Source: Raphidiopsis brookii D9 (lineage in GTDB: Bacteria; Cyanobacteriota; Cyanobacteriia; Cyanobacteriales; Nostocaceae). Taken from it: a stretch of DNA of 5,516 nucleotides. The position numbers were made by a program, and so were the translations under genes. This document shows, piece by piece, positions 1 through 5,516 of this stretch. Positions within the stretch are counted from its first letter, which is position 1, and the number at the start of each line of letters is the position of its first letter. The notes below the pieces were generated by a model. It saw only the letters and a list, made by a program, of their open reading frames with translations, did no database searches and was not told the origin of the DNA. The stretch is from contig ACYB01000013.1 in the NCBI GenBank assembly GCA_000175855.1, positions 1 to 5,516 on the forward strand, in the 5' to 3' direction.

Positions 1-49
1 CTTTTTACAGTATCTCTAACCTGCATTATTCATGAAGGCAAAAACAGGA
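1..49. repeat. Left copy of a cluster-flanking inverted repeat (perfect core 16..49, imperfect extension to base 1)
   Basis: Bases 16..49 (ctaacctgcattattcatgaaggcaaaaacagga) are the exact reverse complement of 5350..5383. Outward of the core the copies still align after a 2-nt indel (a tatctc block, then a ttttt block) up to base 1. The copy is therefore probably truncated by the window edge. Similarity stops abruptly on the inner side at base 50. Confidence 0.9.
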
Positions 50-173
50 AAAACAAAACCTAACATTTATACCCAATTTATGGCGGAACTAACTTAATAA
101 GTAAGGCATTTACTGATAAAATCTGAACGGTACTAAAATTAAGTATCGCCAGAAGTCATTCGTCGTAGGGTGC

Positions 174-178
174 GGGAG
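174..178 (+). promoter_or_regulatory. Shine-Dalgarno-like GGGAG, 5 nt upstream of ATG 184
   Basis: GGGAG lies at 174..178 and ATG at 184. An in-frame TAG at 166..168 closes the frame upstream, so 184 is the first possible ATG. Confidence 0.45.
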
Positions 179-183
179 TAAAT

Positions 184-647
184 ATGCAGTATCAGACCAC
201 TATTGAGCCAATATCTATACAAAAGCAGTTCCCTCTGACTACTGTAGGAGCGCTGGTTATCAATTCTCTCGGACAGGTCTTAATTGTTAAATCTACGAAG
301 TGGCGGGGTGCTTGGGGTGTACCAGGGGAAAAGTAGATTGGGCTGAAACTCTAGAATCTGCACTTTTGAGGGAGTTTCGGGAAGAAGTCGGGTTAGACTT
401 AACTAATGTGCGTTTTGCGTTGCTACAAGAAGCAGTGCTGGACTCACAATTTGTGCGACCTGCCCATTTTATTATGATCAACTATTACGCATTTTCACGT
501 AAAGATACGATTACACCTAATGAAGAAATTGAGGAATGGGCTTGGGTGACTCCCGCACAAGCAAAGGAATATCCTCTCAATAGTTATACCCAAGTATTGA
601 TTGAGGATTTTGTAGAAAATAACATTGGTAGTTTATATAGGAATTAG
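184..647 (+). pseudogene. Nudix hydrolase, frame broken by a 1-nt deficit at the GGGG/AAAA run (325..332); either a pseudogene or a homopolymer sequencing error
   Basis: Frame 1 from ATG 184 reads [50 protein letters not shown] and stops at TAG 334..336. Frame 3 continues [23 protein letters not shown], a perfect Nudix box GX5EX7REUXEEXGU, and runs to TAG 645..647. Adding one G (CCAGGGGGAAAA) would give WGVPGGKVDW and a typical ~154-aa Nudix protein. Confidence 0.8.
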
Positions 648-658
648 GTCTAAGAATA

Positions 659-1378
659 ATGCTGAAAAAAGCACTGGTGACTGGATCATCATCGGGAATT
701 GGTAAGGCGATCGCTCTCGATTTAGCTGCTAAAGGATTTGATGTAGCATTTCATTGTCATAAAAGTGTGGAAGCCTGTAATCAAGCCCGTCAGGAAGGTG
801 CTAAGTACGGCGTAAAAACTGTTGCTTTACAAGCGGATCTGAGAAATCCTGAACAAGCGGAGTTTTTGGTCAAAAATGCTGCTGAGGAATTGGGAGGTCT
901 ATCTGTCGTTGTCAATAATGTGGGTAACTACTTAGACAGACCAACGAGCCAATTATCAGTAGAAGAATGGCATGAAATTATTAATTCTAATCTCCATGGG
1001 ACATTTTATGTCACTAAAGCTGCACTACCTTACCTGAAAGCTGCTAATGGGGGACGTATCATTAATATTGGTTGTGCTGGTGCCCAAAATCTCCTAGCGC
1101 GTTACACTAACACACCTTACTTAATTGCTAAAACTGGCATTATTATCTACTCAAGATCTTTAGCAAAGGAAGTAATTACAGATAAAATTACTGTTAATGT
1201 TGTATCTCCAGGAATAGCAGAAAATTCCTTTGATTTAGAGGAATCTCTACCTGAACTACCTACTAAGCGACCTGCAACTTTACAAGAACTTGTTCATGCA
1301 GCTTGGTTTTTTATTAGTCCAGAATCTGATTATATCACAGGACAGGTATTAGACGTTTCGGGAGGATGGAGGTTGTAA
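659..1378 (+). CDS. Short-chain dehydrogenase/reductase (SDR) family oxidoreductase; candidate pteridine/sepiapterin-type reductase by context only
   Basis: The 239-aa ORF starts 11 nt after the Nudix stop. It has the N-terminal TGSSSGIGKAIA dinucleotide-binding motif, NNVG, YLIAK (YxxxK, 1118..1132), VNVVSPG and a C-terminal ITGQVLDVSGG. The usual catalytic Ser region reads NIGCAGA. Confidence 0.9.
   Translation: MLKKALVTGSSSGIGKAIALDLAAKGFDVAFHCHKSVEACNQARQEGAKYGVKTVALQADLRNPEQAEFLVKNAAEELGGLSVVVNNVGNYLDRPTSQLSVEEWHEIINSNLHGTFYVTKAALPYLKAANGGRIINIGCAGAQNLLARYTNTPYLIAKTGIIIYSRSLAKEVITDKITVNVVSPGIAENSFDLEESLPELPTKRPATLQELVHAAWFFISPESDYITGQVLDVSGGWRL
707..714. repeat. HIP1 octamer GCGATCGC
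   Basis: Exact GCGATCGC inside the SDR gene. Confidence 0.95.
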
Positions 1379-1467
1379 TCAGGTGTGATGATGATTTGGT
1401 TATTTTTGCTCAATGCTTGTGAACAGCTAATAAAAAACTATTGTCTATCAAAAAAAGGATTGGAAAT

Positions 1468-2820
1468 ATGTTGACGATTGAATACATTTATGAAATACAT
1501 GAAAAATATCATGATGCTTTGCAAGTAAAAGTAGAAGAATTTACAATTGGTGATAAAAAATTTAATTTTAATACTGACTCAGCAATTTTAGGAGTGATTA
1601 ATCTTTCTAATGATTCTTGGTACAGAGAAAGCGTATGTTTAAGTTCAGAACAAGCTATTCGCAGAGGATTAGTATTAAAGGCTCAAGGTGCTGATATTAT
1701 AGATATTGGCGCAGAATCTACTTTAGAAAAAGCAGAAAGAGTTGAGGATATTCGCCAAAATTCCCAAATTTTACCAGTGCTAAGATCTCTGAGTCAACAA
1801 GGGGTTTTAACTTCTATTGAAACTTATTATCCTCAAGTGGCTAGAGAATGTTTACAAGCTGGCGCTAATGTGATTAATCTAACGGGTGCTTTTGATAGTG
1901 AGAAAATTTATCAAGCTGTATCTGAATTTGACGCTGGGGTGATTATCTGTTATGTTCAAGGGAAAAATGTCAGAGAAGTTGGTGATTTTGATTTTGGTGA
2001 TGATCCGACAAAATTAATGTATGAATATTTTGCTAATGAAATAGAAATAGCAGCTAAATTTGGGGTGAGAAAAATTTTTGTTGATGCTGGTTTGGGGTTT
2101 TATTATAAGAATCTCCAGGATAGTTCTTTGCGAATTCGTTATCAAATGAAAACTTTTTTGACTACTTTTAGACTGAGAAAATTAGGTTTTCCTGTCTGTC
2201 ATGCTCTCCCTCACGCTTTTGAATATTTTGGGGAAGAAGTAAGAAGTGCAGAATCATTTTTTGCGGTTTTAGCAGCATTAGGAAAAACAGATTTATTCAG
2301 AACTCATGAAGTTCCTAAAGTTAAAGCAGTGTTAGATACACTGTATTCATTTTTAATTATCCAATTATTGGGTAATTTAGGATATAATGATGACTTCAAA
2401 CCGGAATCTGAATCTTTTTTAGAAACTTGGATAATTGGTAAGGAATTCAGATTTGAAGCTGCTCACCAATTACCGAATCATGATGGTAAATGTGCTAGAT
2501 TACATGATCATTCTTGGCGCGGTGTTGTCTATGTTGCAGGGGATAAGCTGATAAACTCAGGTGTTAAACAGGGGATGATTATGGATTATGGTGATATATC
2601 AAAATACATAAAACCCCTGTTGGAAAATTATCTGGATCATTACCATTTAAATGAATCCACAGGTTTAGCTAATCCTACCAGTGAAGCGATCGCTAAATGG
2701 ATTTATGAACAGCTTGAACCCCAAATTCCTGGACTTGTCGCAGTTAGAATTGATGAAACTTGCACCAGTCAATGTATTTACTCAAAAGGAAAAGTTAATT
2801 TTTTTGGGCTTTTAAATTAA
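1468..2820 (+). CDS. Fusion protein: divergent dihydropteroate-synthase-like pterin-binding domain plus QueD/6-pyruvoyl-tetrahydropterin synthase (COG0720) domain
   Basis: The frame is uninterrupted from 1441 to 2820. ATG 1468 is preferred as the start because AAGGA lies 8 nt upstream; the TTG 1441 of the ORF track is possible. Both domains lie in one frame. There is no stop and no in-frame ATG or GTG at the junction (2353..2430), only a TTG at 2368. Confidence 0.88.
   Translation: MLTIEYIYEIHEKYHDALQVKVEEFTIGDKKFNFNTDSAILGVINLSNDSWYRESVCLSSEQAIRRGLVLKAQGADIIDIGAESTLEKAERVEDIRQNSQILPVLRSLSQQGVLTSIETYYPQVARECLQAGANVINLTGAFDSEKIYQAVSEFDAGVIICYVQGKNVREVGDFDFGDDPTKLMYEYFANEIEIAAKFGVRKIFVDAGLGFYYKNLQDSSLRIRYQMKTFLTTFRLRKLGFPVCHALPHAFEYFGEEVRSAESFFAVLAALGKTDLFRTHEVPKVKAVLDTLYSFLIIQLLGNLGYNDDFKPESESFLETWIIGKEFRFEAAHQLPNHDGKCARLHDHSWRGVVYVAGDKLINSGVKQGMIMDYGDISKYIKPLLENYLDHYHLNESTGLANPTSEAIAKWIYEQLEPQIPGLVAVRIDETCTSQCIYSKGKVNFFGLLN
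1579..2352 (+). other. DHPS-like (pterin-binding) domain with altered substrate loops
   Basis: Blocks are collinear with E. coli FolP as I remember it. ILGVINLSNDSW matches VMGILNVTPDSF. GADIIDIGAESTLEKA matches GATIIDVGGESTRPGA. TSIETY matches SVDTS. VINLTG matches IINDI. FVDAGLGFYYKNL matches LLDPGFGFGKNL. DLFRTHEV matches HIIRVHDV. The GMSRKS block is replaced by CHALPHA. Confidence 0.8.
2431..2790 (+). other. QueD / PTPS (6-carboxy- or 6-pyruvoyl-tetrahydropterin synthase) domain
   Basis: FRFEAAHQLPNHDGKCARLHDHSW, LDHYHLNE, NPTSEAIAKWIYEQLEP and DETCTSQCIY closely parallel E. coli QueD (FTFEAAHRLP..GHKCGRLHGHSF, LDHHYLND, NPTSEVLAKWIWDQVKP, KETCTAGCIY; from memory). The catalytic Cys and the three His zinc ligands are present. 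Confidence 0.88.
2686..2693. repeat. HIP1 octamer GCGATCGC
   Basis: Exact GCGATCGC inside the QueD-like domain. Confidence 0.95.
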
Positions 2821-2830
2821 CATAAACAGC

Positions 2831-3355
2831 TTATAAATTGATAGACAAACTCACATCAGAACAGTCTAATTTTTGCAGGAGTTGTGAAATAGGTTCTCTA
2901 GAAAACGGTTCTATCCAATCTGGAGCAATTTCTGCTAATGGAACTAAAACAAAGGCTCTCTGGGTCATTCGAGGATGGGGAATTTGTAAATCTGGTGTTT
3001 CTAAAATCAAGTTATCAAATAATAGTACATCTAAATCTAGGGTTCTAGGTCCCCAACGTTCTTGACGAACTCGACCAAATTCTTGTTCAATATTGAGCAG
3101 AGTTTCTAGCAATTTATAGGGACTAAGTTGCACTTCTAAAATAGCAGCACCGTTTAAATAATCTGGTTGTGATGGTCCGCCTACGGGAGCGGTTCTGTAC
3201 CAACTAGATTGGGCTTTTATGGTAATACCTGGAGTTTTTTCCAGAGTTTTAATTGCACCTTCTAAAATGGCTAAAGATTCCCCTATATTGCTACCAAGAG
3301 CGATCGCACTTAATGAAGGTTTTATCGTTGTTCTCAGGTCAGATATATCAATCAT
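2831..3355 (-). CDS. folK: 2-amino-4-hydroxy-6-hydroxymethyldihydropteridine pyrophosphokinase (HPPK)
   Basis: The 174-aa ORF contains AIALGSNIG, SSWYRTAPVG, QPDYLNGA, GRVRQERWGPRTLDLDVLLF, IPHPRM and RAFVLVPLAEIAP. All are collinear with the hallmark HPPK blocks of E. coli FolK. Confidence 0.93.
   Translation of the reverse strand: MIDISDLRTTIKPSLSAIALGSNIGESLAILEGAIKTLEKTPGITIKAQSSWYRTAPVGGPSQPDYLNGAAILEVQLSPYKLLETLLNIEQEFGRVRQERWGPRTLDLDVLLFDNLILETPDLQIPHPRMTQRAFVLVPLAEIAPDWIEPFSREPISQLLQKLDCSDVSLSINL
3300..3307. repeat. HIP1 octamer GCGATCGC
   Basis: Exact GCGATCGC inside folK. Confidence 0.95.
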
Positions 3356-3520
3356 AAATTTGTAGATGGTAGATGTCAGGAAATTATTAACATAATAATA
3401 ACATATTATCAGATATTTTCACAAAATTGCTTGATCTAAAAAACTGAATTTAGAGTATCATATAACTGATAACTACTGATTTAATTAACCAGGTTCATCA
3501 ACACCAAGGAATTTACTATT

Positions 3521-4519
3521 ATGTCTACAATCTCCAACGGCTTTGAAAAAGTATATGTCCATCCTAGTCAATTTCCCAACAAGGTTTATCAAGATTATTT
3601 AGATTGCTTTTCTGTAGGTAAAATAAATCATAAATTTCATTATGACAGTGTTAAACAAAGTCAGAAATGGTTAAAAATTCATGAATATTATTCTCCAGCT
3701 AGAACCAATGATGATTGTATTAATGCCTATGCAGTATGTTTTCAAAAAACTGCGGAATTTCTGGATATTAATACCAATATCCAAGTAATTGGATTAGGTT
3801 GTGGCGGTGGTGCAAAAGATCATCTTTTAGTATCTTATCTCTTCAATACAGAAAGGGAAATCATTTATTATCCTATTGATGTTAGTTTATCTCTGGCTTT
3901 AATTTCCGGTCAAAAAATTAGGGAATCTTATCCTCAAGTCTCTATACAGCCAATTGTTTGTGATTTACCTTGTGCTGATGATTTAATATTCCATCTTCAT
4001 GATCAAGGAGAAGGACACAGAAAGATCATCACATTTTTTGGGATGATTCCTAATTTTACTCCTGATGAAATATTGCCTATTTTAAGTAATTTTCTCCAAC
4101 CAGGAGATATTTTACTCATGAGTGCAAACTTAGCACCAGGAGACGATTATCTAACAGGAATTAACAAGATTTTGCCACAGTATGATAATGAATTAACCAA
4201 AGATTGGTTAATGACAGTGTTAGTTGACGCAGGGATAAATCGAGACCATGGGACTATTAAATTTTCCCTAAAAGATGATCCAAACCATCAAGAATTAACA
4301 AGAATTAATGCTCAGTTTGAAGTAGAAACTAATATAGATTTGAAATTAGATGATCAAATCATGCACTGGAAAAATGGTGATCAAATTCAATTATTTTTCT
4401 CCTATCGTTATACAACTACTAAACTGCAAAACATTCTCAAACAATATGATATTATCATCCTAGATTATTGGGAAGGTGCAAATCAAGAAGAGGGAGTTTA
4501 TTTTTGTCAAAAGATATAA
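3521..4519 (+). CDS. SAM-dependent methyltransferase of the EgtD / histidine-specific methyltransferase fold (Methyltransf_33-like), substrate unknown
   Basis: The 332-aa ORF has AAGGA 10 nt upstream of its ATG. Its blocks are collinear with mycobacterial EgtD as I remember it. HKFHYDSV..HEYYSPARTN matches KWFYDAVGS..PEYYPTRTE. VIGLGCGGGAKDHLL matches LVELGSGTSEKTRMLL. YYPIDVS..YPQVSIQPIVCDL matches FIPFDVD..YPGIEIDAVCGDF. ITFFGMIPNFTPDE..LQPGDILLMSANL matches VVFLGSTIGNLTPAP..LQPGDSLLLGTDL. Confidence 0.82.
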   Translation: MSTISNGFEKVYVHPSQFPNKVYQDYLDCFSVGKINHKFHYDSVKQSQKWLKIHEYYSPARTNDDCINAYAVCFQKTAEFLDINTNIQVIGLGCGGGAKDHLLVSYLFNTEREIIYYPIDVSLSLALISGQKIRESYPQVSIQPIVCDLPCADDLIFHLHDQGEGHRKIITFFGMIPNFTPDEILPILSNFLQPGDILLMSANLAPGDDYLTGINKILPQYDNELTKDWLMTVLVDAGINRDHGTIKFSLKDDPNHQELTRINAQFEVETNIDLKLDDQIMHWKNGDQIQLFFSYRYTTTKLQNILKQYDIIILDYWEGANQEEGVYFCQKI

Positions 4520-4626
4520 AACAAAAACATCTCCTTGTAGGTAGGGTTTGCAAAAATAAGCCAAGGACATTAGAGGATGTTTGAAAAGTCTAATTTGGGC
4601 GATTAGAAATCACATCTACACAGACA

Positions 4627-4646
4627 AAACCTGCCTACGCAGGTTT
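4627..4646. terminator. Perfect 8-bp stem / 4-nt loop hairpin between the convergent methyltransferase and folB genes; weak bidirectional terminator candidate or dispersed-repeat hairpin
   Basis: The hairpin is aaacctgc (4627..4634), ctac, gcaggttt (4639..4646). T-rich sequence follows on both strands: tttcaaattcttaattttt on + and ttttgtctg on -. The GC core is only 5 bp, so terminator strength is doubtful. Confidence 0.4.
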
Positions 4647-4685
4647 CAAATTCTTAATTTTTCGTATATTAATTTGTATAAATCT

Positions 4686-4704
4686 GGCGGGCAAGATGCC
4701 CACC
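4686..4704. repeat. GC-rich mini-hairpin ggcgggca-aga-tgcccacc, resembling short dispersed hairpin repeats of Nostocales genomes
   Basis: gggca (4689..4693) pairs with tgccc (4697..4701) across a 3-nt loop. The stem extends by gg/cc with one mismatch. It is a GC island inside AT-rich intergenic DNA. The resemblance to genome-wide repeats is from memory only. Confidence 0.35.
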
Positions 4705-4771
4705 CCACAATATCTAACAGTGGTAAAAATTCATACTTTCCTTCAGCAAGTCAAAAAAATAGACATTTGCT

Positions 4772-5139
4772 TCATAAATTTGATTTGCTTCTAGTCAATT
4801 CAATGCGAATATTACCATCAAAATCAGGAATTGGTGCAGCAGGTTTAATGAGAGTAACTTGTACTTGGGTAGTCAGACTACTTTCTTGAAGAATAGCATC
4901 AGCGATCGCACCTGCCAACCTTTCCAATAAATCAAATTTAGATGTTGTCAGCAAGTTTTGGACTAAACTAATAACACTACGATAATCTACTGTATCTTTA
5001 ATAGCATCAGTCTTTGCAGCTTGAGCAAGATCCACCCATAATTTCAAATCTACCTCAAACCATTGTCCTAATACCTTTTCCTCCGGTAATACCCAACATA
5101 ACCATAACCGCGAATCCCTGTCAAATGAATACAGTCCAT
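4772..5139 (-). pseudogene. folB: Dihydroneopterin aldolase, frame broken by a 1-nt deficit near 5087..5097; either a pseudogene or a homopolymer sequencing error
   Basis: On the minus strand, ATG 5139 reads MDCIHLTGIRGYGYVG and then runs out of frame to TAG (5070..5068). The -1 frame continues (V)LPEEKVLGQWFEVDLKLWVDLAQAAKTDAIKDTVDYRSVISLVQNLLTTSKFDLLERLAGAIADAIL...LIKPAAP...IRIELTR. Together these reproduce the full FolB pattern (GxxGxxxEE..Q.F.VD..DTVDY..ERLA..KP), about 122 aa. One extra G in GTTGGG, or one extra T in TATTA, restores the frame. Confidence 0.8.
4902..4909. repeat. HIP1 octamer GCGATCGC
   Basis: Exact GCGATCGC inside folB. Confidence 0.95.
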
Positions 5140-5169
5140 AAAACTCTGATTATAAATCATCAACTGACC

Positions 5170-5211
5170 ATTTTAGATTTTAAATTAAATAACCCAGACC
5201 AAATCTAAAAT
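5170..5211. repeat. 11-bp perfect inverted repeat with a 20-nt spacer, upstream of folB
   Basis: attttagattt (5170..5180) is the reverse complement of aaatctaaaat (5201..5211). The sequence is AT-only, so the match is partly expected by composition. Confidence 0.5.
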
Positions 5212-5218
5212 TAAATTC

Positions 5219-5239
5219 AGATAAATTAAGAATTTATCT
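5219..5239. promoter_or_regulatory. Perfect 9-3-9 palindrome agataaatt-aag-aatttatct, a candidate dimeric regulator binding site upstream of folB
   Basis: 5219..5227 is the exact reverse complement of 5231..5239. The site lies 80-100 nt upstream of the folB start (5139), in the non-coding stretch between folB and the right inverted repeat. Confidence 0.35.
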
Positions 5240-5349
5240 TTCTATAATGTTTTTACATTCATCTATTACGAATGAAAGCAGCAGAAATTATTCAGCAAGC
5301 CCTATTTAATTTTCCAGTAGTTGCACTTAGTAATGTAAGTTGCTAGTTA

Positions 5350-5399
5350 TCCTGTTTTTGCCTTCATGAATAATGCAGGTTAGTGAGATAGGCAAAAAT
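5350..5399. repeat. Right copy of the cluster-flanking inverted repeat (perfect core 5350..5383, imperfect outward extension)
   Basis: 5350..5383 is the exact reverse complement of 16..49. gagata (5385..5390) and aaaaa (5394..5398) continue the alignment with left bases 11..16 and 2..6. The unit also self-pairs: tttttgcc (5355..5362) with ggcaaaaa (5391..5398). Confidence 0.9.
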
Positions 5400-5516
5400 A
5401 TTTCCTAGTGTCTGTAACCACTGATTAAAGCAGAATTAAATCTAGTCAATATACACACGATGTAGACTTTACAGTTGTAGTTTAGTCTTTCCAGTCTTTT
5501 ATATAAACTTGACAAG

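Follow-up and report, generated by a model that had tools for sequence, protein, structure and literature searches.

The analysed window, a 5,516-nt stretch of contig ACYB01000013.1 (GCA_000175855.1) of Raphidiopsis brookii D9, contains seven genes of the pterin pathway enclosed between the arms of a perfect 34-bp inverted repeat. The genes code for a Nudix hydrolase (184–647, forward strand), a short-chain dehydrogenase/reductase (SDR; 659–1378, forward), a DHPS-like pterin-binding enzyme (1441–2356, forward), a 6-pyruvoyl-tetrahydropterin synthase (PTPS; 2387–2815, forward), a folK-type HPPK (2831–3355, reverse), an EgtD-like S-adenosylmethionine methyltransferase with a Methyltransf_33 domain (3521–4519, forward) and the dihydroneopterin aldolase FolB (4772–5139, reverse). 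Neither a transposase nor a recombinase is encoded in the window, as already stated in the first-pass annotation of this sequence.

The left arm (16–49, forward strand) and the right arm (5350–5383, reverse strand) are exact reverse complements at all 34 positions. They are the only 34-mer match in the window at up to three mismatches, and none of 200 dinucleotide-preserving shuffles yielded any such match. The 34-bp inverted repeat is therefore real and not due to chance, as had been claimed for it. Comparison with related loci indicates that the arms are very probably stumps of an insertion sequence (IS), which lie in inverted orientation, lack the transposase gene and bracket a horizontally transferred cluster.

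Relation of the arms to an IS1380-family element

The 29-nt core of the repeat (CCTGCATTATTCATGAAGNCAAAAACAGG) was used as the query of exact scans. It matched five JGI metagenome contigs. In all five the upstream flanks differ, while from CCTGCATT on the same element follows, continuing as ...CAGGCAAAACAAAACCTAACATTTAT..., and this sequence also continues the left arm inside the window. Contigs L086 and L090 (L numbers denote the loci fetched for comparison, 137 in total) have 1,753–1,756 nt in common from the CCTGCATT tip, at 99.4% identity, and then diverge. The far end of the element, read as its reverse complement, is CCTGGATTATTCATCAGAG (CCTGGATTATTCAT), and 14 of its first 16 nt match the CCTGCATT end, so that the two ends are imperfect terminal inverted repeats. 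Between them lies a single open reading frame (ORF) of 449 aa, which reads toward the CCTGCATT end and codes for a DDE transposase (PF13701, 8.5e-136). Its product passes the NCBIfam IS1380 family equivalog model NF033539 (1.3e-122, 409 bits versus a cut-off of 180). Among the proteins that cluster with it at 90% identity is an 'IS1380-like element ISCra1 family transposase' of Cylindrospermopsis raciborskii, from which the name ISCra1 as used here is taken.

Protein-based look-ups provided 16 further IS loci, two of which duplicate earlier contigs. All 20 full copies part from their flanks exactly at the CCTGCATT tip and have near-identical interiors. Each arm is therefore composed of a 4-nt CTAA flank followed by nt 1–30 of the IS, and the arms are the tips of the right inverted repeat (IRR, the transposase-distal end) of a 1,753-bp ISCra1-like element of the IS1380 family. 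This tip was found in more than 15 unrelated contexts. The A at IS nt 30 of the arms is a variant that occurs also in the full copy L098, and the identity of the CTAA flanks of the two arms is coincidental. Exact scans of 185,579 species-representative genomes and of viral contigs with the 29-nt core gave no matches. The only IS1380 elements in the plasmid collection were on Pseudanabaena plasmids and are 66% identical. Neither ISCra1 nor the transfer of the pterin cluster turned up in a search of the literature.

Insertions of the IS1380 family are accompanied by 4–5 bp target-site duplications (PMC12116815). Unlike the clean duplication of the family, full ISCra1-like copies show a TA-containing target (NTAN): TA is present at positions -3/-2 in all 29 distinct flanks of IS ends (18 of the IRR and 11 of the left inverted repeat, IRL), at a background TA frequency of 0.08. 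Among eight non-recombinant full copies, six read TAA before the IS and N-TAA after it, and a clean 4-bp repeat was found in one only. One and the same flank on the IRL side, located downstream of an NTP_transf_9 gene, meets three different IRR-side flanks via the full IS in different metagenomes (L086/L100, L099 and L104), a sign that the IS often mediates rearrangements or that its copies often recombine.

In the window, homology to the IS is limited to nt 1–86 and nt 1–30. The left remnant (20–105, forward strand) represents nt 1–86 of the IRR end at about 95–98% identity, the A30 variant of L098 being the nearest; its tip lies at 20 and its interior points toward the cluster. The right remnant (5350–5379, reverse strand) represents nt 1–30 of the same end, with 29–30 of the 30 nt matching, a tip at 5379 and an interior that likewise points toward the cluster. 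The repeated unit, which had been thought to extend away from the cluster and beyond the left edge of the window, thus runs inward from both tips (20–105 as IS nt 1–86, 5379–5350 as IS nt 1–30). The description of the region as resembling a composite transposon holds insofar as two oppositely oriented copies of a mobile element are present, but these are stumps of the same end without a transposase gene and do not form a functional transposon.

The inner junctions of the remnants with the cluster read …TAATAAGTAAGGCATTT… and …GCTAGTTATCCTGTTTTTGCC…. On the left, at about IS nt 86, the IS meets what is left of a glyoxalase/VOC-family gene derived from Dolichospermum/Anabaena, namely its final ~27 nt (100–126, forward strand). 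At this joint (...AATAAGTAA followed by GGCATTT...) the IS switches to the 3′ end of the VOC gene, with a microhomology of AGTAA versus AGTCA. The window, L111 and L113 all follow IS nt 1–86 and then the 3′ end of the Dolichospermum VOC gene. On the right, the remnant is fused directly to the native DNA upstream of folB. The left junction recurs in L111 and L113 and the right one in L001–L005, L111 and L112; this recurrence in other assemblies and sequencing runs rejects an assembly artefact. Both IS copies are shown to break off within the element, one at nt 86 and the other at nt 30, and to continue there into donor DNA. No second inverted pair of tips, either from further IS fragments or of the kind seen in miniature inverted-repeat transposable elements (MITEs), was found in the 137 loci beyond the cassette of the window and L111; the remaining loci carry full IS copies and the solo ends A and B.

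A promoter-like site is located across the left joint (94–122, forward strand), with the -35 element (TTAATA) in the IS stump and an extended -10 element (TG-n-TAAAAT) in the VOC remnant. With the VOC gene gone, transcription of the Nudix operon could, as predicted from sequence, start from this hybrid site. Such sites are no commoner in the window than in shuffles.

The outer left flank (1–19, forward strand) holds the last part of what remains of a small repeated ORF (the '97-aa ORF' family), closing in CTAA at the IS tip; positions 1–20 of the window match L003 113–94, inside the 97-aa ORF, at 20 of 20 nt. A Pfam search of this small ORF gave no match, and the label 'AP2-like', suggested by an N-terminal motif, was dropped for this reason. 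The outer right flank, here called site A (5380–5516, forward strand), belongs to the C. raciborskii island and precedes a 75-aa ORF and a DUF4351 gene. The metagenome contigs L086, L100 and L101 share this flank and carry a full-length IS at it.

The similarity reported to continue outward from the repeat is present, positions 1–15 and 5384–5400 being alike in about 15 of 21 columns, but it does not belong to the repeated unit, because the 20 full copies diverge at the tip, base 20 of the window. Homology of the wider outer flanks was rejected, since the local alignment of the 300 nt outside each arm scored 19, equal to the shuffle mean of 18.8 ± 2.4. A circular or tandem structure was considered because window positions 1–20 recur 2.2 kb past the right arm in relatives. 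It was ruled out by L111, where the left flank proves to be a paralogue of the small ORF in its own right, with an internal deletion, next to a plsY/PPDK-like gene. Target-site duplications, which a transposed unit might have left, were not found: the unit is not framed by direct repeats, and its flanks read ...CTA-A before the left tip and T-TAG... after the right one.

Donor, recipient and strain variation

Contigs found via the HPPK of the window (L001–L005) are 99.3–99.5% identical to window positions 247–5516, and their proteins, as well as the window-type Nudix hydrolase, have exact-sequence records annotated as C. raciborskii. The segment enclosed by the stumps (100–5349) is collinear with the pterin locus of Dolichospermum/Anabaena, and the similarity to five Dolichospermum/Anabaena loci and six contigs from metagenomes or sequencing runs (L107–L110, L115 and L116), 93–98.6% at the nucleotide level, is confined to this segment, with the alignments of L006, L008, L010 and L107 ending exactly at 5349. 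The six nearest relatives of the methyltransferase among the species-representative genomes are from Dolichospermum/Anabaena (95–98% amino acid identity), followed by Scytonema (77%), and no Cylindrospermopsis representative is among the best 80 matches. For the Nudix protein, identity with the Anabaena type is complete (100%).

Where it is covered, the donor-type context consists of an arginase gene, the VOC gene, the cluster, heptamer repeats and then a class-I tRNA synthetase gene (lysS-type). The 34-bp repeat is absent from all of these Dolichospermum/Anabaena loci and contigs. Relatives that carry the cluster without the repeats, which had been proposed as a test of the link between repeats and cluster, therefore do exist in Dolichospermum/Anabaena, but they carry it at a different, conserved locus and not at the same one. 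A repeat-free cluster at a different locus in the donor clade shows that the repeats lie where horizontally transferred DNA begins and ends.

On the recipient side, the cluster sits in a strain-specific island of ~7.6–7.9 kb between the plsY/PPDK-like gene and an NYN gene. The plsY/PPDK-like fusion protein beside the island is 96% identical within C. raciborskii, and its identity to proteins of other genera does not exceed 74%. The site is empty in ten other contigs of C. raciborskii, in which the plsY/PPDK-like gene directly precedes the NYN gene and 12 nt (CAAGGAGGTGGA) take the place of the ~7.6-kb island of L001. The donor-like identity of the cluster, the host-specific neighbouring gene and the empty site together indicate that the cluster was acquired horizontally. 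The 5.25-kb, seven-gene cluster is therefore a recent acquisition by some C. raciborskii strains from the Dolichospermum/Anabaena (ADA) clade. The IS stumps lie exactly at both of its borders.

The nearest donor type is the 'Anabaena sp. 54' lineage (L006/L107), which alone shares a small repeat insertion of ~90 nt at window positions 4574–4663. This MITE-like dispersed repeat, located in the spacer between the methyltransferase gene and folB, contains a hairpin (AAACCTGCCTACGCAGGTTT) and serves as a marker of the donor lineage: it occurs in the C. raciborskii copies and in the Anabaena sp. 54-type locus but not in other Dolichospermum species, and L006 and L107 hold a further, 78% identical copy at a distance of 5.5 kb. 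Between the DHPS-like and PTPS genes, the Anabaena sp. 54-type locus also has an insertion of ~245 nt (L006 8615–8860; L107 12203–12448). This insertion is missing from the C. raciborskii copies, with a matching BLAST break at window positions 2373–2386.

Apart from the cluster, the island holds further features (L001 5640–8200; L119 7910–7960): the DUF4351 gene, coding for an Rpn/PD-(D/E)XK transposase-like protein, the 75-aa ORF and two paralogous copies of the Pfam-less small ORF, one at each island end.

The strains differ in how much of the bracketing sequence they retain. L111 (GCA_026929835.1) is of the window type and 99.5% identical to the window over positions 1–5386. It extends 214 nt further to the left, through the 3′ end of the plsY/PPDK-like gene and the deleted small-ORF remnant to CTAA at the tip. 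In type III strains (L001–L005) a 248-nt deletion relative to L111, corresponding to about -67 to 181 in window numbering, removed the distal part of the ORF remnant, the entire left IS stump, the VOC remnant and the Nudix leader, so that these strains keep the right arm only. They also have a 45-nt in-frame deletion in the Nudix gene (codons 7–21, equivalent to window 204–248), and the N terminus of the Nudix protein varies among C. raciborskii strains, with calls of 139–151 aa.

Two further deletions start exactly at the right IS tip. In L001, 8 bp are lost from the tip (…GCCTAT joined to CCTG), and in L111, 507 bp including the 75-aa ORF (…CACTTAT joined to CCTG). Both junctions retain TA at -3/-2. 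The inner junction is unchanged, so these deletions post-date the truncation of the IS. This suggests that the right 30-bp orphan end is apparently still cut by a transposase supplied in trans, a reading that agrees with the tolerance of the IS1380 family for partial or surrogate ends (PMC12116815). Past the 507-bp deletion, L111 departs from the sequence of L003 directly after a HIP1 site (GGGCGATCGCC; L111 5790–5874 versus L003 ~1680), which adds one more breakpoint specific to a strain. A third solo tip, 32 nt long with one mismatch, is found beyond the plsY/PPDK-like gene (L003 11085–11116, also in L001, L002 and L004), in direct orientation and within a 1.37-kb strain-variable segment. 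An internal CAGG at IS nt 26–29 mimics the IS terminus, and the solo ends stop alongside it, at nt 30 and 32.

These strain comparisons bear on two other functions that could be assigned to the repeat. The first-pass annotation had proposed that the arms might serve as recombination substrates inverting the 5.3-kb segment. A perfect 34-bp repeat could in principle allow rare homologous recombination, but no recombinase gene is present in or beside the unit and the ten window-like loci obtained from assemblies and sequencing runs are all oriented alike, with the Nudix gene toward plsY/PPDK and folB toward site A. Since type III strains lack one arm and the identity with the IS end already explains the arms, such a switch is very improbable. 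Even less credible is a shared cis-regulatory element, operator or RNA motif, upstream of the Nudix gene and folB. The arms do lie upstream of both inward-reading genes in the same relative orientation. Against this, the sequence is missing at the same genes in Dolichospermum/Anabaena, is an IS tip with many unrelated locations, and no longer precedes the Nudix gene in type III strains, which keep that gene; moreover, Rfam (E-value mode) and tRNA scans of the window gave no credible or relevant match.

Broken reading frames and distribution of the cluster

The two genes nearest to the repeats, those of the Nudix hydrolase and FolB, had been described as exactly the two with broken frames. The frame of the former is broken at 324 (a run of five G reduced to four) and that of the latter at 5087 (three A reduced to two), but in total six single-base indels are present in the window, at 71, 324, 2350, 2397, 2799 and 5087, and three of them disturb the DHPS-like and PTPS genes. 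Those at 2350 and 2397 fuse the DHPS-like gene artificially to the next gene, the result being one fused ORF of 459 aa. All six are in homopolymer runs. L111 differs from the window at all six, L003 at all five inside its aligned span (247 onward); at these sites the two relatives agree with each other, and the corresponding genes are intact in both. The indels are most likely sequencing errors in the source assembly, unconnected with the repeats, and the coincidence of broken frames and repeat-proximal genes is a homopolymer artefact.

The 5′ end of the methyltransferase gene shows a tandem-duplication polymorphism of 12 nt (AACGGCTTTGAA) at window position 3535. The product has 332 aa in the window, L111 and L112, and 336 aa in L001, L003, L004 and Dolichospermum. 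As loci L012–L085 and L128–L137 show, pterin clusters containing Methyltransf_33 are widespread in filamentous cyanobacteria, Verrucomicrobiota and a few other phyla have relatives at 41–48% identity, and a shorter FolB–HPPK–PTPS arrangement without the methyltransferase is found in some contigs of the ADA type. A look-up based on FolB (P0380) returned a different arrangement from the ADA clade and no new flanks.

Origin of the structure and comparison with known systems

The present structure, in which transposase-less IS stumps mark the borders of a transferred cluster, most likely arose as follows. Two ISCra1-like copies in inverted orientation, with their IRRs outward, would have framed the site where foreign DNA was fixed, one of them in the small-ORF remnant beside plsY/PPDK and the other at site A. 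The IS bodies, comprising the transposase genes and the IRL ends, would have been lost via illegitimate joints, microhomology-mediated on the left. By one possible route, incoming ADA-clade DNA was joined illegitimately to the resident IS copies, for example in the repair of transposase-induced breaks. By another, a composite-transposon-like structure may have brought the cluster and subsequently lost both IS bodies by internal deletions. On either route the repeats today are scars with no autonomous function.

Several observations weigh against this reading. The 20 full copies of the element all come from metagenomes, and a comparison of the window with plasmid and phage collections gave no match and revealed no vector. 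The outer flanks of the arms (15 of 21 columns) are more alike than those of other copies, none of which shares the likeness, although this may be chance. The solo ends of ~30–32 nt may hint at specific end-processing rather than random deletion.

In an alternative, the tip-to-tip unit (20–5379, 5,360 bp) is itself a non-autonomous, ISCra1-derived cargo transposon with two IRR ends, similar to a mobile insertion cassette, that was and still could be mobilised in trans and that delivered the cluster. The tips do point outward, and over 29–30 bp each is identical to the terminus of copies that are apparently active. Transposases of the IS1380 family are known to act even on surrogate ends of weak similarity and, as in the case of ISEcp1, to carry neighbouring DNA along (PMC12116815), and the tip-precise deletions at the right end suggest continuing transposase action. 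In L088, in addition, a different outer flank is followed by IS nt 1–86 and then by the cassette-type 'GG' at the contig end, a position that reads 'AA' in all 20 full copies. This hint, however, consists of 2 nt at the end of a de Bruijn contig, after 35 nt common to all copies, and may be a graph artefact. The flanks of the unit, CTA-A and T-TAG, are reverse complements and contain no direct repeat, whereas most full copies have TAA on one side and N-TAA on the other, and excision of the unit leaves no continuous target. The unit occupies the same chromosomal site in every assembly, and its left end is gone in type III strains. Delivery by such a transposon is accordingly an unlikely origin of the structure, and movement of the cassette as a unit by transposition is hardly better placed. 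A still trans-mobilisable transposon, with 86-bp and 30-bp IS1380-family ends, that carried the complete pterin operon from Dolichospermum/Anabaena to Cylindrospermopsis and left the deletions as its footprints, is likewise doubtful, if marginally less so.

Transposase-less stumps around a transferred cluster have parallels in known systems. As in ISCra1 and other IS1380 elements, the arms correspond to the first 29–30 nt of the IRR, and the element has the CC at the start of its ends that typifies the family; unlike in these elements, there are stumps of 86 and 30 nt of one same end and no transposase. The ISEcp1 (ISEc9)/blaCTX-M units are similar in that an IS1380-family element is tied to the interspecies movement of adjacent chromosomal genes, and in the tolerance of the family for surrogate or partial ends. 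Those units have a complete IS (IRL–tnpA–IRR), a weak surrogate IRR and 5-bp duplications, while here two true IRR tips are found with neither tnpA nor a duplication. Composite transposons such as Tn10 and Tn5 likewise consist of inverted copies of one IS around passenger genes, with equivalent ends outward. In the present case both IS are reduced to stumps whose inner breakpoints are fused to the cargo, target duplications are absent and one location is known. Mobile insertion cassettes such as the IS231-derived MIC231 share the IS-type terminal repeats, the passenger genes, the lack of a transposase and the potential for mobilisation in trans; here, by contrast, one end measures only 30 bp, direct repeats are absent and a single copy is known. 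Overall, the structure is a decayed, IS1380-bounded and horizontally transferred cassette, which belongs to a familiar class of mobile-DNA scars and does not represent a new kind of system.

The perfect repeat is a dated and mechanistically readable record of the recent movement (~98.5% nucleotide identity) of a metabolic cluster between genera of harmful-bloom cyanobacteria. It is useful in annotating Cylindrospermopsis/Raphidiopsis pangenomes, in which the cluster is part of a strain-variable island bordered by IS stumps, and provides an example of IS1380-type elements shaping cyanobacterial genomes. For the biology of the IS1380 family, the 30-bp orphan end that a transposase apparently uses in trans offers a modest case that lends itself to testing.

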